In this document: positions 209 through 6,090 of the stretch, in pieces
Layout of the letters: each line of letters starts with the position of its first letter
Position numbering within the stretch: position 1 is the first letter of the stretch
Assembly (NCBI GenBank): GCA_003559395.1
Contig: PWLL01000048.1
Coordinates: forward strand, 1-6,354
DNA: 6,354 bases
Direction: 5' to 3'
Source: Candidatus Iainarchaeum sp.
Lineage (GTDB): Archaea; Iainarchaeota; Iainarchaeia; Iainarchaeales; CSSED10-239
Translations under genes and position numbers: made by a program
The notes under the pieces: model-generated
Database searches by the model: none
The model's input: only the letters and a program-made list of their open reading frames with translations
Told to the model about the DNA's origin: nothing

Positions 209-532
209 CTATTTTTTTTTAACAGATAAATAAATATTAAGAACAAAGATAAACACAAATACAAAAATTAAAACAATTATACCAGAAGAAGCATAAGAGA
301 CTAAACCCGTGATTTTTGAAGTCGTATCTGTTGTTTTTTCTTCTTCAACAACGGTTTTATCTAAAGGAACATTTATATCTAAAGAAAGACTTTTTTTTTC
401 TGAATCTCTAGTTAATATTCTTTCTTCTGATTCGTTTGTATCTTGAGTATCTATGTTTTCTGTAGCATAAACAAAAGAAGTGCTTATGAAAAATACTAGA
501 CACAACAAAACAAATATTTTTTTCGCATACAT
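209..532 (-). CDS. Small (107 aa) secreted or surface-anchored protein with an N-terminal signal peptide, an acidic Thr-rich middle and a C-terminal TM helix plus KKK tail
   Basis: The N-terminus MYAKKIFVLLCLVFFISTSFVYA/TE looks like a Sec signal with an AxA-like cleavage site. The middle region is rich in D, E and T. The C-terminus GIIVLIFVFVFIFVLNIYLSVKKK is a hydrophobic helix followed by a basic tail. No competing plus-strand ORF exists here. No homology is recognised. Confidence 0.65.
   Translation of the reverse strand: MYAKKIFVLLCLVFFISTSFVYATENIDTQDTNESEERILTRDSEKKSLSLDINVPLDKTVVEEEKTTDTTSKITGLVSYASSGIIVLIFVFVFIFVLNIYLSVKKK
212..220 (+). terminator. T9 tract 6 nt after the TGA of the upstream plus-strand gene; candidate archaeal-type oligo-T terminator
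   Basis: tgaaactattttttttt: the T9 run at 212-220 lies inside the KKK-coding 3' end of the convergent minus-strand gene. The mirror A8 run at 191-198 gives a T8 tract downstream of the minus-strand gene's stop. Confidence 0.3.
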
Positions 533-713: not shown

Positions 714-1646
714 ATGAACACAAAATTTTTAAAAGATTTAAAAGAAACAACTTCTAAAGAAGTTGGAGGTAAAGGATATTCTCTTAGTAAAATTTATTCT
801 TTAGGCTATAATGTGCCAAATGCTTTTGTTGTTTTTTCATGTGTTTTTGATGAATTTCTTATAGAAAATAAACTTTTAGATAAAATAAAGCTAAATCTTT
901 CAAAAGTTAATTTAAAAGAACCAAAAACAATAAAAAAAGCATCAGATCAAATTCAAGAACTTTTTTTAAAAACACCAATTTCTTCTTCTTTAAAACAAGA
1001 AATAATATCATCCTATAAAAAACTCAAAACTCAAAAAGTAGCCATAAGATCATCTGCAACAGCAGAAGATTCAAAAAAAGCTTCTTGGGCTGGACAATTG
1101 GATACTTTTTTGTATGTTTCTAAGAAAGATGTTATAGAATCTATAAAAAAATGTTGGGCATCTTTATACAATGAAAGAGCAATCTATTATAGATTTTTAA
1201 AAAAACAAGACAAAAAAGATATATCTGTAGCAGTTGTTGTCCAAAAGATGGTTGATTCTAAAGTTTCTGGTGTTAGTTTTTCTGTAAACCCAGTGACAGA
1301 AGATAAAACCCAAATAATTATTGAAAGTGCTTATGGTTTAGGTGAAGCCATTGTTTCAGGTCAAATATCAACAGATTGTGTTGTAGTTTCAAAAAAAAGC
1401 CTTAAGATTTTAGAAAAAAATATAGTTACTAAAAAAAGAGCCTTATATAAAAATAAACAAAAATATGGGTGGAAGAAAATTTCTTCTAATCTTCAAAAAA
1501 AACAAAGCCTTACTGATCAACAAATAAAAAAAATATCTATAATGATTATAGATCTAGAAAAAATAAACAAATGTGCTGTTGATATAGAATGGACACTAGA
1601 TCAAAAAATATATCTTTTGCAAGTAAGACCTATAACAAATCTATAA
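714..1646 (+). CDS. Stand-alone PPDK_N-type ATP-grasp (nucleotide-binding) domain protein of the PEP synthase / pyruvate-phosphate dikinase / rifampin phosphotransferase superfamily
   Basis: Three motifs match the N-terminal domain of PpsA, PPDK and RPH: VGGKGYSLSKIYSLGYNVPNAFVV (GGKxxxL...G.xVPxGF), VAIRSSATAEDSKKASWAGQLDTFLYV (RSSAxxEDxxxxSFAGQ) and KCWASLYNERAIYYR. The C-terminal DIEWTLDQKIYLLQVRPIT is the canonical end of that domain. The protein stops exactly there at 310 aa, with no swivel or TIM-barrel domain. Confidence 0.9.
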   Translation: MNTKFLKDLKETTSKEVGGKGYSLSKIYSLGYNVPNAFVVFSCVFDEFLIENKLLDKIKLNLSKVNLKEPKTIKKASDQIQELFLKTPISSSLKQEIISSYKKLKTQKVAIRSSATAEDSKKASWAGQLDTFLYVSKKDVIESIKKCWASLYNERAIYYRFLKKQDKKDISVAVVVQKMVDSKVSGVSFSVNPVTEDKTQIIIESAYGLGEAIVSGQISTDCVVVSKKSLKILEKNIVTKKRALYKNKQKYGWKKISSNLQKKQSLTDQQIKKISIMIIDLEKINKCAVDIEWTLDQKIYLLQVRPITNL

Positions 1647-1649
1647 AAA

Positions 1650-2411
1650 ATGATTATTATGCCACCAAGAAATAAAAAAACAATTTATGATAAACAAAAT
1701 ATCCATGACCCTTTGATAAAATTGTCATTTGGAAGACATGGACAAAAAAACCCAATAACAGGAAATCTTACAAAAAAAGGAAAAAAAGATGCAAGACAAA
1801 GAGCAAAAAAAATAAATCCTAAGAAAGTGTTTAAAGCATATACAAGTTCAGAAAAAAGAGCAAAACAAACTTTAGAAATAATTAAAGAAAACACAAAACA
1901 AAAATATAAAAGTGCTGTTAAAAAAGAACTGAACGAAAATAATGCTTTTGTTTTTTCAAAAAATACAAAAAAAATAATTGATTTTTTTAAGAATCTTGCA
2001 GGTAATAACAAATTTGCAAAAAGAACAGCAAATAAATGGCTTAACCATAAAATATCTGCAAAAATTATGAGGGCCCCAGAAGAAGTTGCAGATGAGGTTA
2101 TTAGAAAAAGAATAGGGTTAGTTGTTAGGTTTATAAGACTTAAAGAAAGTCAAGGAAAAATAAAAGAAACACCAAAAATACATATGGAAGCTATAACACA
2201 TGCAGGAATAATAATGCCTGTTTATGAAAGATTAACAGGATACAAATATTTTGAAAAATACAATGATATGCCAAATGTGAAAGAAACACTTACCTTTAAC
2301 TTTTCTCCATATAAAAAAGGAGAAGTAAAAATACTAATGAACTTTCGTAAAAGAAACTTTGATGTTACTGAAAAAGTTTATGAGATTTTAAAACAACAAA
2401 AAGTTTTATAG
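1650..2411 (+). CDS. Histidine phosphatase superfamily (branch 1, phosphoglycerate-mutase / SixA-like fold) protein
   Basis: The RHG catalytic motif FGRHGQK is present (R29-H30-G31, nt 1734-1742). It is followed by LTKKGKKDARQRAKKI and YTSSEKRAKQTLEII, which fit the LTxxGxxQA and SSxxxRAxQT patterns. The second catalytic His lies in AITHAGII (H184, nt 2199-2201). The start is 3 nt after the upstream stop. An alternative start is the ATG at 1659. Confidence 0.82.
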   Translation: MIIMPPRNKKTIYDKQNIHDPLIKLSFGRHGQKNPITGNLTKKGKKDARQRAKKINPKKVFKAYTSSEKRAKQTLEIIKENTKQKYKSAVKKELNENNAFVFSKNTKKIIDFFKNLAGNNKFAKRTANKWLNHKISAKIMRAPEEVADEVIRKRIGLVVRFIRLKESQGKIKETPKIHMEAITHAGIIMPVYERLTGYKYFEKYNDMPNVKETLTFNFSPYKKGEVKILMNFRKRNFDVTEKVYEILKQQKVL

Positions 2412-3407
2412 TTTTTTAATAATTCCTTTGCTTAAATTAATTTCTACATAATCTTTATTTTTTATATTAGAGAAAAGATCACTAACATTAACAACGCAAG
2501 GGATTTTGTTTTCTCTAGCAAAAATAGATGCATGTGAAAGTTTTGTTCCTTGTTCAGTAATAATGGCTTTTATTTCATTAATATAAGGAAAAAAATCAGG
2601 ATTTATTTTTTTTGCACACAATATTTTATTTTTACATTTTTGTAATTCCTTTTTATTTTTAATAACCATTACTTTTCCACAAATGAAATTTTCTTTATTT
2701 TTGCTAGTTACAACTCCTTTAAGAGATTTGTGTTTATTAACTTTTTTTAAATCTGAAAATATTTTATTTATCTTATTTTGATCATATGAAAAAGTTTCTT
2801 TATTAGCTTTTATATAATAGATAAATCCTTTTTTTCTTTGTTTTATTTGTTTTTCAAGATTAGTAATATTTATTTTATTTTCAATTATTTTTTCAACTTC
2901 TGAAATTGTTAAAAATAAAAGATCGTTTTTATTTATTTTTAATAAGTTTGATGTTTTTTCAAGAAAAGGAGTAATATATTTATAATGATCATTGTTCTTT
3001 ATATCTTTATAAGCTTTATTGTTTAGTTCGTTTTTTATATCACATTCATAATATATAAATCTATTATAAAAATCAAAAAATCTTAGTAATTTGAAAATTA
3101 ATAACAAATCTTCTTTTTTTTTAAGATTAATAAAATAAGTTTTTAGATCAAACATTATTTTTTTTAGTTTTTTTATGTTTTTATTAATTGTTTTTCTTTT
3201 ATTTTTAAAATTGTTTTTTGCAGAAGTACAATGTCTTTTATTTACAAGCTTAACAAATTGTTTGTTTTTGTAAATAATAATAATGTCTGGATATGTACAA
3301 TCAATTATTTTTTTATAATTAAAGTTTTTATCTGCAATACTGTTTAAGAAAATTCCTTGTTCTATATCTTTGTTAATATACCAGTCTCTAAGATTAATAT
3401 CAAACAT
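2406..3407 (-). CDS. Two-domain protein: an unrecognised N-terminal region of about 225 aa fused to a C-terminal PEP-utilizer mobile (phosphohistidine swivel) domain
   Basis: The C-terminal ~105 aa read LKGVVTSKNKENFICGKVMVIKNKKELQKCKNKILCAKKINPDFFPYINEIKAIITEQGTKLSHASIFARENKIPCVVNV. This fits the swivel-domain pattern G.xxxG.vxvi....ILVa..t.P.....l..v.gixTexGGxTSHaAIvARelgIPxVV. The candidate phospho-acceptor is His292 (codon at 2532-2534). The N-terminal region (about nt 2724-3407) is K/N-rich and looks helical, with no family motif I recognise. Confidence 0.85.
   Translation of the reverse strand: MFDINLRDWYINKDIEQGIFLNSIADKNFNYKKIIDCTYPDIIIIYKNKQFVKLVNKRHCTSAKNNFKNKRKTINKNIKKLKKIMFDLKTYFINLKKKEDLLLIFKLLRFFDFYNRFIYYECDIKNELNNKAYKDIKNNDHYKYITPFLEKTSNLLKINKNDLLFLTISEVEKIIENKINITNLEKQIKQRKKGFIYYIKANKETFSYDQNKINKIFSDLKKVNKHKSLKGVVTSKNKENFICGKVMVIKNKKELQKCKNKILCAKKINPDFFPYINEIKAIITEQGTKLSHASIFARENKIPCVVNVSDLFSNIKNKDYVEINLSKGIIKKL
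2412..2417 (+). terminator. T6 tract immediately after the TAG of the histidine-phosphatase gene; candidate oligo-T terminator
   Basis: The sequence tag-tttttt at 2409-2417 lies within the KK-coding 3' end of the convergent minus-strand gene. Confidence 0.25.
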
Positions 3408-3490: not shown

Positions 3491-4210
3491 ATGAGATTAG
3501 ACAAATATTTATTAAAAAATAAACAAATAGATACTAGAAGTAAAGCAATATACTTTATAAAAAGTCAAAAAATAAAAATAAACAACCAAATAATAACAAA
3601 ACCAGCCTATAATATAAAACCAGAAGACAAAATACAGATTATTCCTAAAAAAATATATGTTAGCAAAGGAGCTTATAAACTAGAAAGTTTTTTAGAAAAA
3701 ATTTCATTTTCAATAGAAAATAAAACGATTTTAGATGTTGGTTGTTCAACAGGCGGATTTACTCATTATTTTTTAGAAAATAAAGCGAAACAAGTAGTTG
3801 CTATTGATGTTGCTAAAGATATAATATCTAAAAAACTCTTAAAATATAATAATTTAATATATAAAGATCAGATAGATGCAACAAATAAAGAAAATATTAA
3901 TTGTTTGCTAGATAGAAAAGTAGATGTTATATCTATAGATGTAAGTGATATATCTGTAAAAAAAGTATTATGTGCTGTACATGAATATCTTAAAAAAAAA
4001 GGAGCAATAATTCTATTATATAAACCACACTACGAAGGAGGAAAAGGAATTGTTTCAAAAGAAGAAAAACAAAAATTATTAGAAACTTTTGAAAAATGGA
4101 TTGTTGATAATAATATCTATAAGATCATACATAAAATAAACTCATCAGAAAGAGGAGGATATAATCTTAAAGGTAACAGAGAGATATTTTATATGTTAAA
4201 GCTTAAGTAA
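3491..4210 (+). CDS. tlyA: TlyA-family rRNA (cytidine-2'-O)-methyltransferase with an S4-like RNA-binding domain plus an FtsJ/RrmJ-type SAM methyltransferase domain
   Basis: MRLDKYLLKNKQIDTRSKAIYFIKSQKIKINNQIITKPAYNIKPEDKI is the S4 domain. YVSKGAYKLESFLEKISFSIENKTILDVGCSTGGFTHYFLENKAKQVVAIDVA matches the TlyA signature YVSRGxxKL...DxGxSTGGFTD...GAxxVxAxDV. ISIDVSDIS and LYKPHYEGGKG correspond to DVSFISL and KPQFE. Confidence 0.88.
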   Translation: MRLDKYLLKNKQIDTRSKAIYFIKSQKIKINNQIITKPAYNIKPEDKIQIIPKKIYVSKGAYKLESFLEKISFSIENKTILDVGCSTGGFTHYFLENKAKQVVAIDVAKDIISKKLLKYNNLIYKDQIDATNKENINCLLDRKVDVISIDVSDISVKKVLCAVHEYLKKKGAIILLYKPHYEGGKGIVSKEEKQKLLETFEKWIVDNNIYKIIHKINSSERGGYNLKGNREIFYMLKLK

Positions 4211-4273: not shown

Positions 4274-4630
4274 ATGCCTCTAAAAAAAGTAAGAGTTGTT
4301 AAAAAACTAACAGCATTAGAAGAAAAACAAAAACTATATCAACAAAAAGGAGAAATATTAGATGTTTTTCTTAAATTTGATAAAGCATATAATCTAATAA
4401 AGCAGAAAAAAAAGCTTTCTGGAAGAAACTCATTTGAACAAAGTTTTGCAGAACTTAAAGCCATTAGTATTAAAATAAAAAAGTCAAATATATCTGAAAT
4501 AAAAAAACAAGAAATTTTAAAAAAACTTCAAGAAAACTTAAAACAAGAGCTCTTAAAAATAAAAGAAGTTTATCCTTTTCCAGAAAAACTAAAGAAAATA
4601 GAAAGATATATTATTTCTATCTATCCTTGA
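4274..4630 (+). CDS. Hypothetical lysine-rich, predicted coiled-coil protein (118 aa)
   Basis: This is an ORF in otherwise uncovered sequence. A partial SD-like GTGAT lies at 4264-4268, 5 nt before the ATG. Heptad-like K/E/L patterning occurs, for example KKQEILKKLQENLKQELLKIKE. No family is recognised. Confidence 0.5.
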   Translation: MPLKKVRVVKKLTALEEKQKLYQQKGEILDVFLKFDKAYNLIKQKKKLSGRNSFEQSFAELKAISIKIKKSNISEIKKQEILKKLQENLKQELLKIKEVYPFPEKLKKIERYIISIYP

Positions 4631-4714: not shown

Positions 4715-5173
4715 ATGAAGAATATGTATGAACAAAAAATAGAAAAAATTACACTTAAAAAAATACGAAAAAAATTTAATAAATATTACTCTTTTTGTTA
4801 TGATGATGATTTTAGAAAGTGGGTTGATAGCTATGATTATATATCATATACTTTAAATAATAAAAAAATAATCGCAACACTACTTATTAAAGAATGTCCT
4901 GAGTTTCCAAGAATTTGGCAACTAGGAAGAATAATCGTAAATGAAGATTTTAGAAAAAATAATGTTGGTTCTAAACTTTTAAAAAATACAGAAGATTTTA
5001 TAAAAGAAAAAAACGGAGCCAAAATACTTGTGCATGTTTCAGATACAAACAAACCCGCACAAGCTTTCTATAAGAAAAACAACTATCTAAAAGAAGCAAC
5101 TATTAAAAAAATGAAACTAGGAAAAGAAAATCTGAACATATATAGTAAAGAAATAAAAGGAGATAAAAGATGA
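4715..5173 (+). CDS. GNAT-family N-acetyltransferase
   Basis: GNAT motif A and the acetyl-CoA pocket are recognisable in LGRIIVNEDFRKNNVGSKLLKNTEDFIKEKNGAKILVHVSDTNKPAQAFYKKNNY (hxVxxxxRxxGhGxxLh ... N..A..FYxKxGF). The 152-aa size is typical. An alternative start is the ATG at 4724. Confidence 0.85.
   Translation: MKNMYEQKIEKITLKKIRKKFNKYYSFCYDDDFRKWVDSYDYISYTLNNKKIIATLLIKECPEFPRIWQLGRIIVNEDFRKNNVGSKLLKNTEDFIKEKNGAKILVHVSDTNKPAQAFYKKNNYLKEATIKKMKLGKENLNIYSKEIKGDKR
5159..5162 (+). promoter_or_regulatory. Shine-Dalgarno (GGAG) for pyrB, inside the 3' end of the GNAT gene
   Basis: In aaggagataaaagATG the GGAG lies 7 nt upstream of the ATG at 5170. The pyrB ATG overlaps the GNAT TGA (ATGA at 5170-5173). 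Confidence 0.5.
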
Positions 5174-6090
5174 AAGATATAAAAAATATAATTTCAATAA
5201 AAGATTTATCTTCAGAACAAATAAACTATATTCTTACAGTTGCAGAAGATATTGAAAAAAATCCAGAAAAATATAAAAATATACTTAGAGGAAAAGTTAT
5301 TGCGAGCTTGTTTTTTGAACCATCAACAAGAACAAAACTCTCATTTGAAACTGCAATAAAAAAACTTGGAGGAAATACTGTTGGGTTTGATGATATACAA
5401 ACAACTTCTGTAAAGAAAAAAGAAACCTTTAGTGATTCAATAAAAGTAATTGCAGGCTATTCAGATCTTGTTGTTATGAGAACAAAAATTGAAGGTGCTT
5501 CAAGACTTGCAAGCGAAATGACAGATAAACCCATAATTAATGGAGGAGATGGAACAAACCAACATCCAACACAAACACTCCTAGATCTTTATACTATTAA
5601 AAAAGAAAAAAAACTTGAGAATCTAACAATTGGTTTTTTTGGAGATTTAAAATATGGTAGAACCGTTCATTCTCTTGTTGAAGCAATTTCTTTATATCAA
5701 CCAAAAAAAATAAAATTTATTTCTGCTCCTCAATTTGGAATCGGTAAAGAATATTTAGAAATGTTAGATAAAAAAGAAATTGAATATGAAATACATGAAG
5801 AAGCAAAAGGAAATCTTAAAGATTTAGATATTTTGTATGTTACACGTACGCAAGTAGAAAGAATAGTAGAACCAATAGAAATAGAACCTTTGAAAAAAAA
5901 ATATACAATTACTAAAGAACTTTTAGATGCAGAAGAAAATCCAGAATTAATAGTTATGCATCCACTACCAAGAGTCTATGAAATTTCAAAAGAAATAGAT
6001 GATACAAAACATAATGTTTATTTTAAACAATCAAATAACGGAATACCAGTAAGAAAAGCACTAATATGTATTCTTTTAAAACTTGTATGA
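5170..6090 (+). CDS. pyrB: Aspartate carbamoyltransferase catalytic subunit
   Basis: All ATCase signature blocks are present: FFEPSTRTKLSFETA (STRT carbamoyl-phosphate loop), VVMRTKIEGASRLA, INGGDGTNQHPTQTLLDLYTI (HPTQ), GDLKYGRTVHSL, YVTRTQVERI and HPLPRVYEI. The 306-aa length is typical. It is followed directly by pyrI. Confidence 0.97.
   Translation: MKDIKNIISIKDLSSEQINYILTVAEDIEKNPEKYKNILRGKVIASLFFEPSTRTKLSFETAIKKLGGNTVGFDDIQTTSVKKKETFSDSIKVIAGYSDLVVMRTKIEGASRLASEMTDKPIINGGDGTNQHPTQTLLDLYTIKKEKKLENLTIGFFGDLKYGRTVHSLVEAISLYQPKKIKFISAPQFGIGKEYLEMLDKKEIEYEIHEEAKGNLKDLDILYVTRTQVERIVEPIEIEPLKKKYTITKELLDAEENPELIVMHPLPRVYEISKEIDDTKHNVYFKQSNNGIPVRKALICILLKLV

Follow-up and report, generated by a model that had tools for sequence, protein, structure and literature searches.

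A candidate two-component dikinase of the rifampin phosphotransferase class with a shortened substrate module, encoded on a probably archaeal contig

We analysed a stretch of 6,354 nucleotides from contig PWLL01000048.1 (hereafter the window), in which three neighbouring genes encode a 310-amino-acid (aa) ATP-grasp protein, a 253-aa protein of the histidine-phosphatase fold and, on the opposite strand, a 333-aa protein that ends in a phosphohistidine 'swivel' domain (Table 1). It is probable, in our judgement from the sequences, that this locus encodes a working, trans-acting, two-component ATP-dependent dikinase of the rifampin phosphotransferase (RPH) class, one whose substrate module is reduced and which comes with a phosphatase-fold accessory protein. 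We favour this reading because the domains are complementary: one protein is ATP-grasp only, the other joins a substrate domain to a swivel, and there is no TIM barrel. The original prediction for this DNA had likewise proposed a trans-acting two-component phosphotransferase with an RPH-like pairing of substrate and His domains. That part remains the best reading, while the accompanying suggestion that the substrate-setting domain is novel does not hold.

In the mechanism that we propose, the 310-aa protein would bind Mg-ATP and the swivel of the 333-aa protein would dock on it transiently. His292 of the swivel would then attack the β-phosphate of ATP, with the γ-phosphate freed as inorganic phosphate (Pi) and AMP leaving. 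The phosphorylated swivel would return to its own shortened, helical, RPH-like N-terminal domain (N-domain), where a bound acceptor, most probably a small-molecule hydroxyl group, would receive the phosphate. The 253-aa protein could serve as an accessory that hydrolyses or rearranges the phosphorylated product or that resets the phospho-His carrier in the manner of SixA. That the 310-aa protein partners the 333-aa protein, that the chemistry yields AMP + Pi, what kind of group accepts the phosphate and what the phosphatase-like protein does are all read from homology.

Judged by their profile scores, the ATP-grasp and swivel domain matches are strong and not due to chance. PF01326 (PPDK_N) covers the 310-aa protein from profile position 2 to position 311 of 328 (E 1e-89), and no other Pfam domain is matched. 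Since the protein aligns with residues 11-316 of RPH-Lm (E 3e-47) and RPH's ATP-grasp domain comprises residues 1-314 (PMC4844700), it ends at the ATP-grasp domain boundary, as had been predicted. Four ATP-site residues of RPH-Lm that were tested by mutagenesis, K22, R117, T136 and E297 (PMC4844700), are identical in the 310-aa protein, where they correspond to K20, R112, T131 and E292. The protein also matches the HpeI structure 9GOJ end to end (residues 25-355, E 2e-36), its similarity to HpeI being no greater than that to RPH or to phosphoenolpyruvate (PEP) synthase. It has more than 3,700 database relatives, the nearest non-identical ones at 45-57% identity. The best 120 of these are nearly all 310-326 aa long and 45-57% identical, and they come from DPANN archaea and from the Candidate Phyla Radiation (CPR)/Patescibacteria; 58 alignment columns are invariant among 31 standalone homologues. 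The earlier contention that a simple frameshift does not account for the split is borne out, as the tested catalytic residues are all kept and the standalone ATP-grasp proteins form a large conserved family.

The presumed partner, the 333-aa protein, carries PF00391 (PEP-utilizers) at residues 259-328 (E 2e-18) as its only Pfam domain. This is the only swivel domain in the window, as the original prediction had it. Its His292 falls on the catalytic His in alignments with PEP synthase and RPH, and the domain matches residues 391-482 of PEP synthase 8A8E (E 6e-11). The motif reads T284-E-Q-G287-T288-K-L-S291-H292; compared with the consensus T/SxxGGxxxH, the second Gly is Thr288 here and Ser in the other two short forms of the protein that we recovered. 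Across the swivel family the His is found in 93 of 93 sequences, the equivalent of T284 in 85 and that of G287 in 92.

Several features of the two proteins bear on whether the locus is instead a split gluconeogenic PEP synthase or pyruvate phosphate dikinase (PPDK), or a series of decayed pseudogene fragments of one. The best-scoring NCBIfam models are indeed named 'phosphoenolpyruvate synthase', and relatives are annotated 'pyruvate, water dikinase', but these NCBIfam matches lie far under the cut-offs (284 and 67 bits against at least 598). The swivel lies at the C-terminus, where RPH has it, and not in the middle of the chain. Leu290 occupies the position two residues ahead of the catalytic His, so that the regulatory Thr of the PEP-synthase-type motif GGxTS/CH (PMC12167813) is absent. 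A Pfam search found no match to PF02896, the PEP/pyruvate TIM barrel, in any window open reading frame (ORF) of at least 60 aa, the N-terminus of the 333-aa protein included, in agreement with the prediction that this is not a gluconeogenic PpsA. A pseudogene series is hard to reconcile with an ATP-grasp family of thousands with intact catalytic residues and with a 333-aa protein conserved over its full length. We regard this alternative as highly improbable; the lack of a TIM barrel, the sub-threshold scores and the conservation of the proteins effectively refute it.

The N-terminal ~225 aa of the 333-aa protein had been described as matching nothing recognisable. Single-sequence searches indeed make the N-domain seem an orphan: they return nine real relatives of the whole protein and, among 1.8 billion representatives, three of its N-terminal 240 aa, with a fourth match, to residues 13-54 only of the 3,022-aa protein P0133, not counted as a relative. 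The scarcity of such matches is probably due to the extreme composition of the protein (19% Lys, 13.5% Ile and 12% Asn). The GC content drops to 0.156 at positions 2751-3250, inside the N-domain coding region. Profiles do reveal relatives, and together with fold comparisons they tie the domain to the rifampin-binding domain of RPH and to a short CPR/DPANN class of partner proteins. Positions 84-421 of a profile built from the 333-aa protein and relatives align with residues 543-878 of RPH-Lm 5HV2 (E 7e-36), a span that takes in the second half of the rifampin-binding domain and the swivel; NCBIfam models of the PRK06241/RPH type align from approximately residue 159 of the 333-aa protein onwards. 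When the three short forms were compared by HHalign with 89 CPR/DPANN 'N-domain + swivel' proteins, the match had a probability of 100% (E 8e-40, 305 columns), with ~135 residues deleted from the middle. Taken by itself, the N-domain is matched over nearly its full length to the 300-400-aa class profile (97.8%, E 1e-12, 217 columns).

The lengths of partner proteins are bimodal, at ~330-390 aa and ~480-510 aa, and by these alignments the 333-aa protein is a member of the common short (~300-400 aa) CPR/DPANN partner class. In a Foldseek search with its AlphaFold2 (AF2) model, taken at the level of the family, the top six matches were all RPH, over ~270 columns, as compared with ~106 columns for swivel-only proteins. 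The TM-scores of the model to RPH were low (0.30), to which the orientation of the swivel relative to the N-domain may contribute. On the alignments and the predicted fold, the N-domain is a shortened RPH-type substrate-binding domain and not a novel one; of the substrate domain of RPH it represents the C-terminal half only. Its conserved motifs are W9-Y10, 'YPDIIIIY', 'DFYxRxxYYE', 'FLTISEIE' and 'RKKGF'. The 333-aa protein is kept over its entire length among short forms from three lineages at 47-50% identity; it is therefore under selection, with an N-domain that is maintained and not decaying.

The third protein of the locus is matched by PF00300 (His_Phos_1) at 30.6 bits against a cut-off of 21.7, over residues 39-108 only. 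All six of its closest homologues keep the catalytic-type residues R29, H30, R70 and H184, and the Foldseek matches of its model, although weak (best E 7e-4), all belong to the histidine-phosphatase superfamily. Motif, Pfam score and predicted fold together assign it to branch 1 of that superfamily. We rejected SixA, dPGM and CobC as subfamilies, the NCBIfam scores being all far below the cut-offs; a weak match to the SixA model TIGR00249 (E 6e-4) also falls far below the family threshold, and no other subfamily assignment, such as PhoE, emerged. In the related locus L009 (we number related loci with the prefix L), the homologue of this protein (6472-7206, E 1e-30) has 'SSDM' in place of the second catalytic-type His motif 'THAG', and may be inactive or work differently.

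Enzymes of the histidine-phosphatase superfamily act via a phospho-His intermediate. This fits an alternative in which the 333-aa protein is mainly a phospho-His carrier, comparable to Enzyme I of the phosphotransferase system (PTS) with ATP in place of PEP as the source of its charge, that delivers phosphate to a protein acceptor, for example His30 of the 253-aa protein. An N-domain that is missing about half of the RPH substrate domain, and in which the second-site Arg-Glu pair is not clearly kept, would suit such a relay. So would the standing of histidine-phosphatase-type proteins as the most frequent neighbours of related dikinase genes, the occurrence of swivel-only mini-ORFs in gene arrays, and the fact that the swivel also matches the N-terminal domain of PTS Enzyme I. 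However, the conservation of the N-domain and its homology to substrate-binding modules speak for its binding something; the L009 homologue is without the second catalytic His; to our knowledge no RPH-class swivel is known to hand phosphate to a protein; and the idea is pure inference. We consider such a phosphorelay improbable.

Evidence from related genomes also bears on the proposed two-component dikinase. We scanned 80 related genome loci with purpose-built hidden Markov models, counting swivel neighbours within 10 kb. The ATP-grasp protein is standalone in 35 loci, of which 29 have one to six separate swivel genes within 10 kb and six have no swivel gene in the flank. It is fused in the other 45: to one module in 27 (661-853 aa, RPH-like) and to two to five modules in a single ORF in 18 (1,007-2,707 aa). 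A swivel is either fused or present within 10 kb in 74 of the 80. Where the partner is separate, 16 of 29 loci have at most 80 bp between the ATP-grasp gene and the nearest swivel gene, and 72 of 75 partner genes share the strand of the ATP-grasp gene. In a neighbour-joining tree of 85 ATP-grasp domains, split forms are interspersed with fused ones, at least 21 switches being needed, and 21 of the 85 nearest neighbours differ in architecture. Taken together, the adjacency, same-strand and fusion data constitute strong evidence, of the operon and Rosetta-stone kind, that standalone ATP-grasp proteins of this family work with separately encoded swivel proteins.

The multi-module end of this series comprises giant ORFs of 1,900-2,700 aa from DPANN and CPR genomes, in which one ATP-grasp domain is followed by three to five repeated substrate-domain + swivel modules (Table 1). 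Direct inspection of seven of the largest multi-module ORFs found no N and no stop codon. At the other end, ORFs of 80-244 aa that are swivel-only or nearly so lie in or beside arrays (L053 7131-7412, L083 8582-8911, L086 9663-9986, L030 11756-12376, L037 3764-4474 and L091 3420-4151); these could be stand-alone phospho-carriers or gene fragments.

Across the related loci, the commonest non-dikinase neighbours are genes of the histidine-phosphatase fold (~20 loci), which often begin 5-20 bp downstream of a fused dikinase gene and which divide into three subfamilies with a distant relationship to one another (HHalign 84%, 84% and 31%). Given this recurrence, a phosphatase-type accessory is a feature of the family, with a presumed role. 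Other neighbours recur as well: phosphatases of the low-molecular-weight protein tyrosine phosphatase type in four loci (L020, L025 15124-15585, L066 and L078), DUF5674 proteins in four (L017, L019, L060 6030-6389 and L064) and MurA-like enolpyruvyl transferases in four (L060, L065 557-1867, L072 and L079). In L011 an HD phosphohydrolase gene (7444-8043) sits between two swivel genes. In L030 a 640-aa ORF (12472-14391) beside swivel genes fuses a His_Phos_1-like domain to N-formylglutamate amidohydrolase (FGase).

For the two window proteins themselves, we infer partnership from this family behaviour and from domain complementarity, not from a conserved synteny of the trio. The proposed check for conservation of the trio among relatives gave a negative answer: the exact trio with its convergent layout recurs only in the 99%-identical strain L099, and a metagenome scan with the short-form alignment returned only L099. 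In L095 the order of ATP-grasp gene and then phosphatase-like gene is kept, and the convergent neighbour is not a swivel protein. In L009 and L010 the genes for ribosomal protein S7 and EF-2 enclose an ATP-grasp gene, a gene for a small P-loop protein and a phosphatase-like gene, without a swivel gene in the vicinity, and in L043 a phosphatase-like gene stands directly upstream of the dikinase ORF. These arrangements favour an explanation by chance neighbourhood, in which the ATP-grasp and phosphatase-like genes are the unit and the 333-aa protein receives its phosphate from this ATP-grasp protein or from another encoded elsewhere, or acts independently. The same explanation is helped by the lack of linkage of the 333-aa relatives in L001 and L100 to either gene and by the convergent layout of the window. 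Against it stand the absence of any known phosphate-passing route for an RPH-family ATP-grasp protein lacking a swivel His domain, and the association of ATP-grasp genes with swivels across the scanned loci. Nor is the supposed pair obligatory, as L096 and L098 keep the phosphatase-like gene in synteny without an ATP-grasp gene; moreover, a partnership needs no physical adjacency in a genome of ~1 Mb. We hold the chance-neighbour explanation to be unlikely.

In L096 (720-1948) and L098 (47-1245), a gene similar to the small membrane-protein gene of the window sits next to the phosphatase-like gene in divergent orientation, and the space between holds no ATP-grasp gene; that synteny block has therefore either gained the ATP-grasp gene by insertion or lost it. 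In the DPANN genomes of L009, L010, L013, L014 (~3000-9000) and L015 (~8000-14000), the standalone ATP-grasp gene lies inside a conserved S12-S7 ... aEF-2 cluster of translation genes, where it is preceded by an unannotated gene for a protein of 187-240 aa, with no swivel gene in the flanks.

A number of observations weigh against the two-component dikinase that we favour. Some concern the proteins. In size the N-domain comes to roughly half of the substrate domain of RPH or HpeH. The second-site residues of RPH, Arg666-Glu667 and Lys670, are kept as [RK][DE]xR[KR] in the majority of the 89 CPR/DPANN modules; for the 333-aa protein, the MAFFT alignment is gapped at the Arg666-Glu667 site and HHalign puts Y133-K134-D135 there with low confidence, K134-D135 not being kept in the other short forms P0002 and P0132. 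These unplaced second-site residues are the main gap in a small-molecule-kinase reading, and the small-molecule site is putative. The AF2 models, with predicted local distance difference test scores (pLDDT) of 68 for the 333-aa protein and 65 for the 253-aa protein, come from shallow alignments and serve for family-level fold matches only. Other observations concern the genes. The nearest ATP-grasp relatives (L009, L013-L015 and L095) are without a nearby swivel gene, and the short-form relatives in L001 and L100 have another synteny in common, their available flanks containing neither an ATP-grasp nor a phosphatase-like gene. The window genes are convergent and not co-transcribed, an opposite-strand arrangement seen in only three of the 75 family partner genes. 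The co-transcription that goes with adjacency in the wider family is missing in the window, where the two genes are adjacent, with a third gene between them. Finally, a 6.4-kb contig leaves the other ATP-grasp and swivel genes of the genome outside our view.

The original statement that known members of the superfamily carry ATP-grasp and swivel domains on one polypeptide is contradicted by HpeHI, CreHI and the phenylphosphate synthase PpsAB, characterised two-component dikinases that represent a split version of RPH (PMC12167813). HpeI is a standalone ATP-grasp protein with a crystal structure (9GOJ; Dexter et al., PMC12167813), and HpeH joins an RPH-like substrate-binding domain to a C-terminal swivel, its H581Q variant being inactive (PMC12167813). 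A stable HpeH-HpeI complex was not detected, so that transient docking is enough (PMC12167813). The window shares with these systems a separate ATP-grasp protein (~310-390 aa) and an RPH-like substrate domain followed by a C-terminal swivel (T/SxxGGxxxH), as well as the lack of a TIM barrel and of a regulatory Thr. It differs in that HpeH, CreH and PpsA measure ~600-650 aa, as against 333 aa with about half of the substrate domain in the window partner. The setting differs too: the HpeHI, CreHI and PpsAB systems are bacterial and operonic and serve aromatic catabolism beside carboxylases, whereas the window genes are convergent and belong to a reduced, AT-rich, DPANN-like genome, with housekeeping surroundings and a neighbour of the histidine-phosphatase fold. 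As the 310-aa protein resembles HpeI no more closely than it does RPH or PEP synthase, its separation from the swivel may have arisen independently of the HpeHI type.

RPH itself (5FBS, 5HV1; PMC4844700) gives the best match to both window proteins in sequence and in fold, and its domains follow the same order, ATP-grasp, substrate domain and C-terminal swivel, with the same ATP-site residues. It is, however, one chain of 867 aa with a rifampin-binding domain of ~440 aa, whereas the window has two chains and a substrate domain of ~225 aa. Flavonoid phosphate synthetase and PigC/RedH are other single-chain enzymes of the PRK06241 type that group with RPH. The ATP-grasp and swivel domains of PEP synthase and PPDK are homologous to those of the window, and the presumed chemistry, from ATP to AMP + Pi via phospho-His, is the same, but these enzymes own a PF02896 TIM barrel, a central swivel and Thr regulation near the catalytic His, none of which is present in the window. 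In PTS Enzyme I, as in the 333-aa protein, a swivel phospho-His domain is found with a helical domain before it. Yet Enzyme I is charged by PEP via its TIM barrel and donates to HPr; in the window the donor would be the ATP-grasp protein, and no HPr is evident. By analogy with SixA, the 253-aa protein, a member of the His_Phos_1 family, might strip phosphate from the phospho-His carrier.

With the split itself not new and the N-domain not novel, the original claim was overstated. What the locus would add is a probably archaeal, miniaturised member of the two-component RPH-class dikinases. It also corrects routine annotations as 'PEP synthase / pyruvate, water dikinase', which would wrongly imply gluconeogenesis in CPR/DPANN metabolic reconstructions. 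The wider CPR/DPANN pattern matters more than the single locus. Organisms whose genomes are among the smallest known retain a single ATP-grasp domain, up to six diversified modules and a conserved phosphatase-fold partner, and so large an investment points to an important, unstudied phosphorylation function in the symbiotic lifestyle, such as scavenging, detoxification or signalling. We found no description of a CPR/DPANN-wide series of split, fused and multi-module forms with a phosphatase-fold partner in the searchable literature, most subscription journals lying outside the search, and the series with its recurrent histidine-phosphatase-fold partner seems unreported. Doubtful, though conceivable, is a broader proposal: that across entire lineages of ultra-small CPR bacteria and DPANN archaea one ATP-grasp 'charger' serves interchangeable carriers, each a substrate module with a swivel, together with a dedicated histidine-phosphatase-fold partner, the window being a minimal example and the role being neither aromatic catabolism nor antibiotic inactivation. 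Were this so, the role could be salvage or activation of host metabolites, or an ATP-driven phospho-His relay towards protein acceptors, with the 333-aa form mainly a carrier. The natural series of split, fused and multi-module forms lends itself to work on how enzymes with swivel domains withstand being split and fused.

Table 1. Features of the window, with mapped residues, and the giant multi-module ORFs of related loci (positions are those of the window or of the locus named)
Feature	Location	Positions	Strand	Length	Remarks
Small membrane-type ORF	Window	209-532	-	107 aa	
ATP-grasp-only protein	Window	714-1646	+	310 aa	PF01326 PPDK_N
ATP-site codon K20	Window	771-773	+		Mapped from RPH-Lm mutagenesis
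ATP-site codon R112	Window	1047-1049	+		Mapped from RPH-Lm mutagenesis
ATP-site codon T131	Window	1104-1106	+		Mapped from RPH-Lm mutagenesis
ATP-site codon E292	Window	1587-1589	+		Mapped from RPH-Lm mutagenesis
Histidine-phosphatase-fold protein	Window	1650-2411	+	253 aa	PF00300 His_Phos_1
R29-H30-G31	Window	1734-1742	+		Catalytic-type residues of 253-aa protein
R70	Window	1857-1859	+		Catalytic-type residue of 253-aa protein
H184	Window	2199-2201	+		Catalytic-type residue of 253-aa protein, in 'THAG'
N-domain + swivel carrier protein	Window	2406-3407	-	333 aa	PF00391 PEP-utilizers
Phosphohistidine swivel domain	Window	2409-2720	-		~Residues 230-333 of 333-aa protein
His292 codon	Window	2532-2534	-		Aligned with catalytic His
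N-domain, shortened RPH-type helical substrate-binding (predicted)	Window	2721-3407	-		~Residues 1-229 of 333-aa protein
TlyA-like rRNA methyltransferase	Window	3491-4210	+	239 aa	
ORF without assigned identity	Window	4274-4630	+	118 aa	
GNAT acetyltransferase	Window	4715-5173	+	152 aa	
PyrB	Window	5170-6090	+	306 aa	
PyrI start, partial	Window	6098 to window end (6354)	+		'VIDHI...'
Giant multi-module ORF	L061	4166-12286			
Giant multi-module ORF	L057	10004-17053			
Giant multi-module ORF	L043	10073-17155			
Giant multi-module ORF	L050	5565-11621			
Giant multi-module ORF	L018	9986-15700			

The window is densely coding, with a GC content of ~22%, and likely derives from a DPANN-type archaeon. 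The gene surroundings of its relatives are archaeal (RNA polymerase A'', L7Ae, S12/S7, aEF-2, L10P/L12 and aIF5A), and the nearest named relatives of the ATP-grasp protein are from Ca. Iainarchaeum (50% identity) and Woesearchaeota (49%). A scan of this low-GC DNA, probably archaeal, for sigma-70 promoters and terminators gave 26 sites against 24 expected. The gene for the 253-aa protein is co-directional with the ATP-grasp gene and starts 4 nt past its stop codon; it converges on the gene for the 333-aa protein with a stop-to-stop overlap of 6 nt (2406-2411). Further downstream, the start codon of PyrB overlaps the end of the upstream GNAT gene by 4 nt (5170-5173), and PyrB is followed by the start of the aspartate carbamoyltransferase regulatory chain, a pyrB-pyrI pair that runs off the end of the window.

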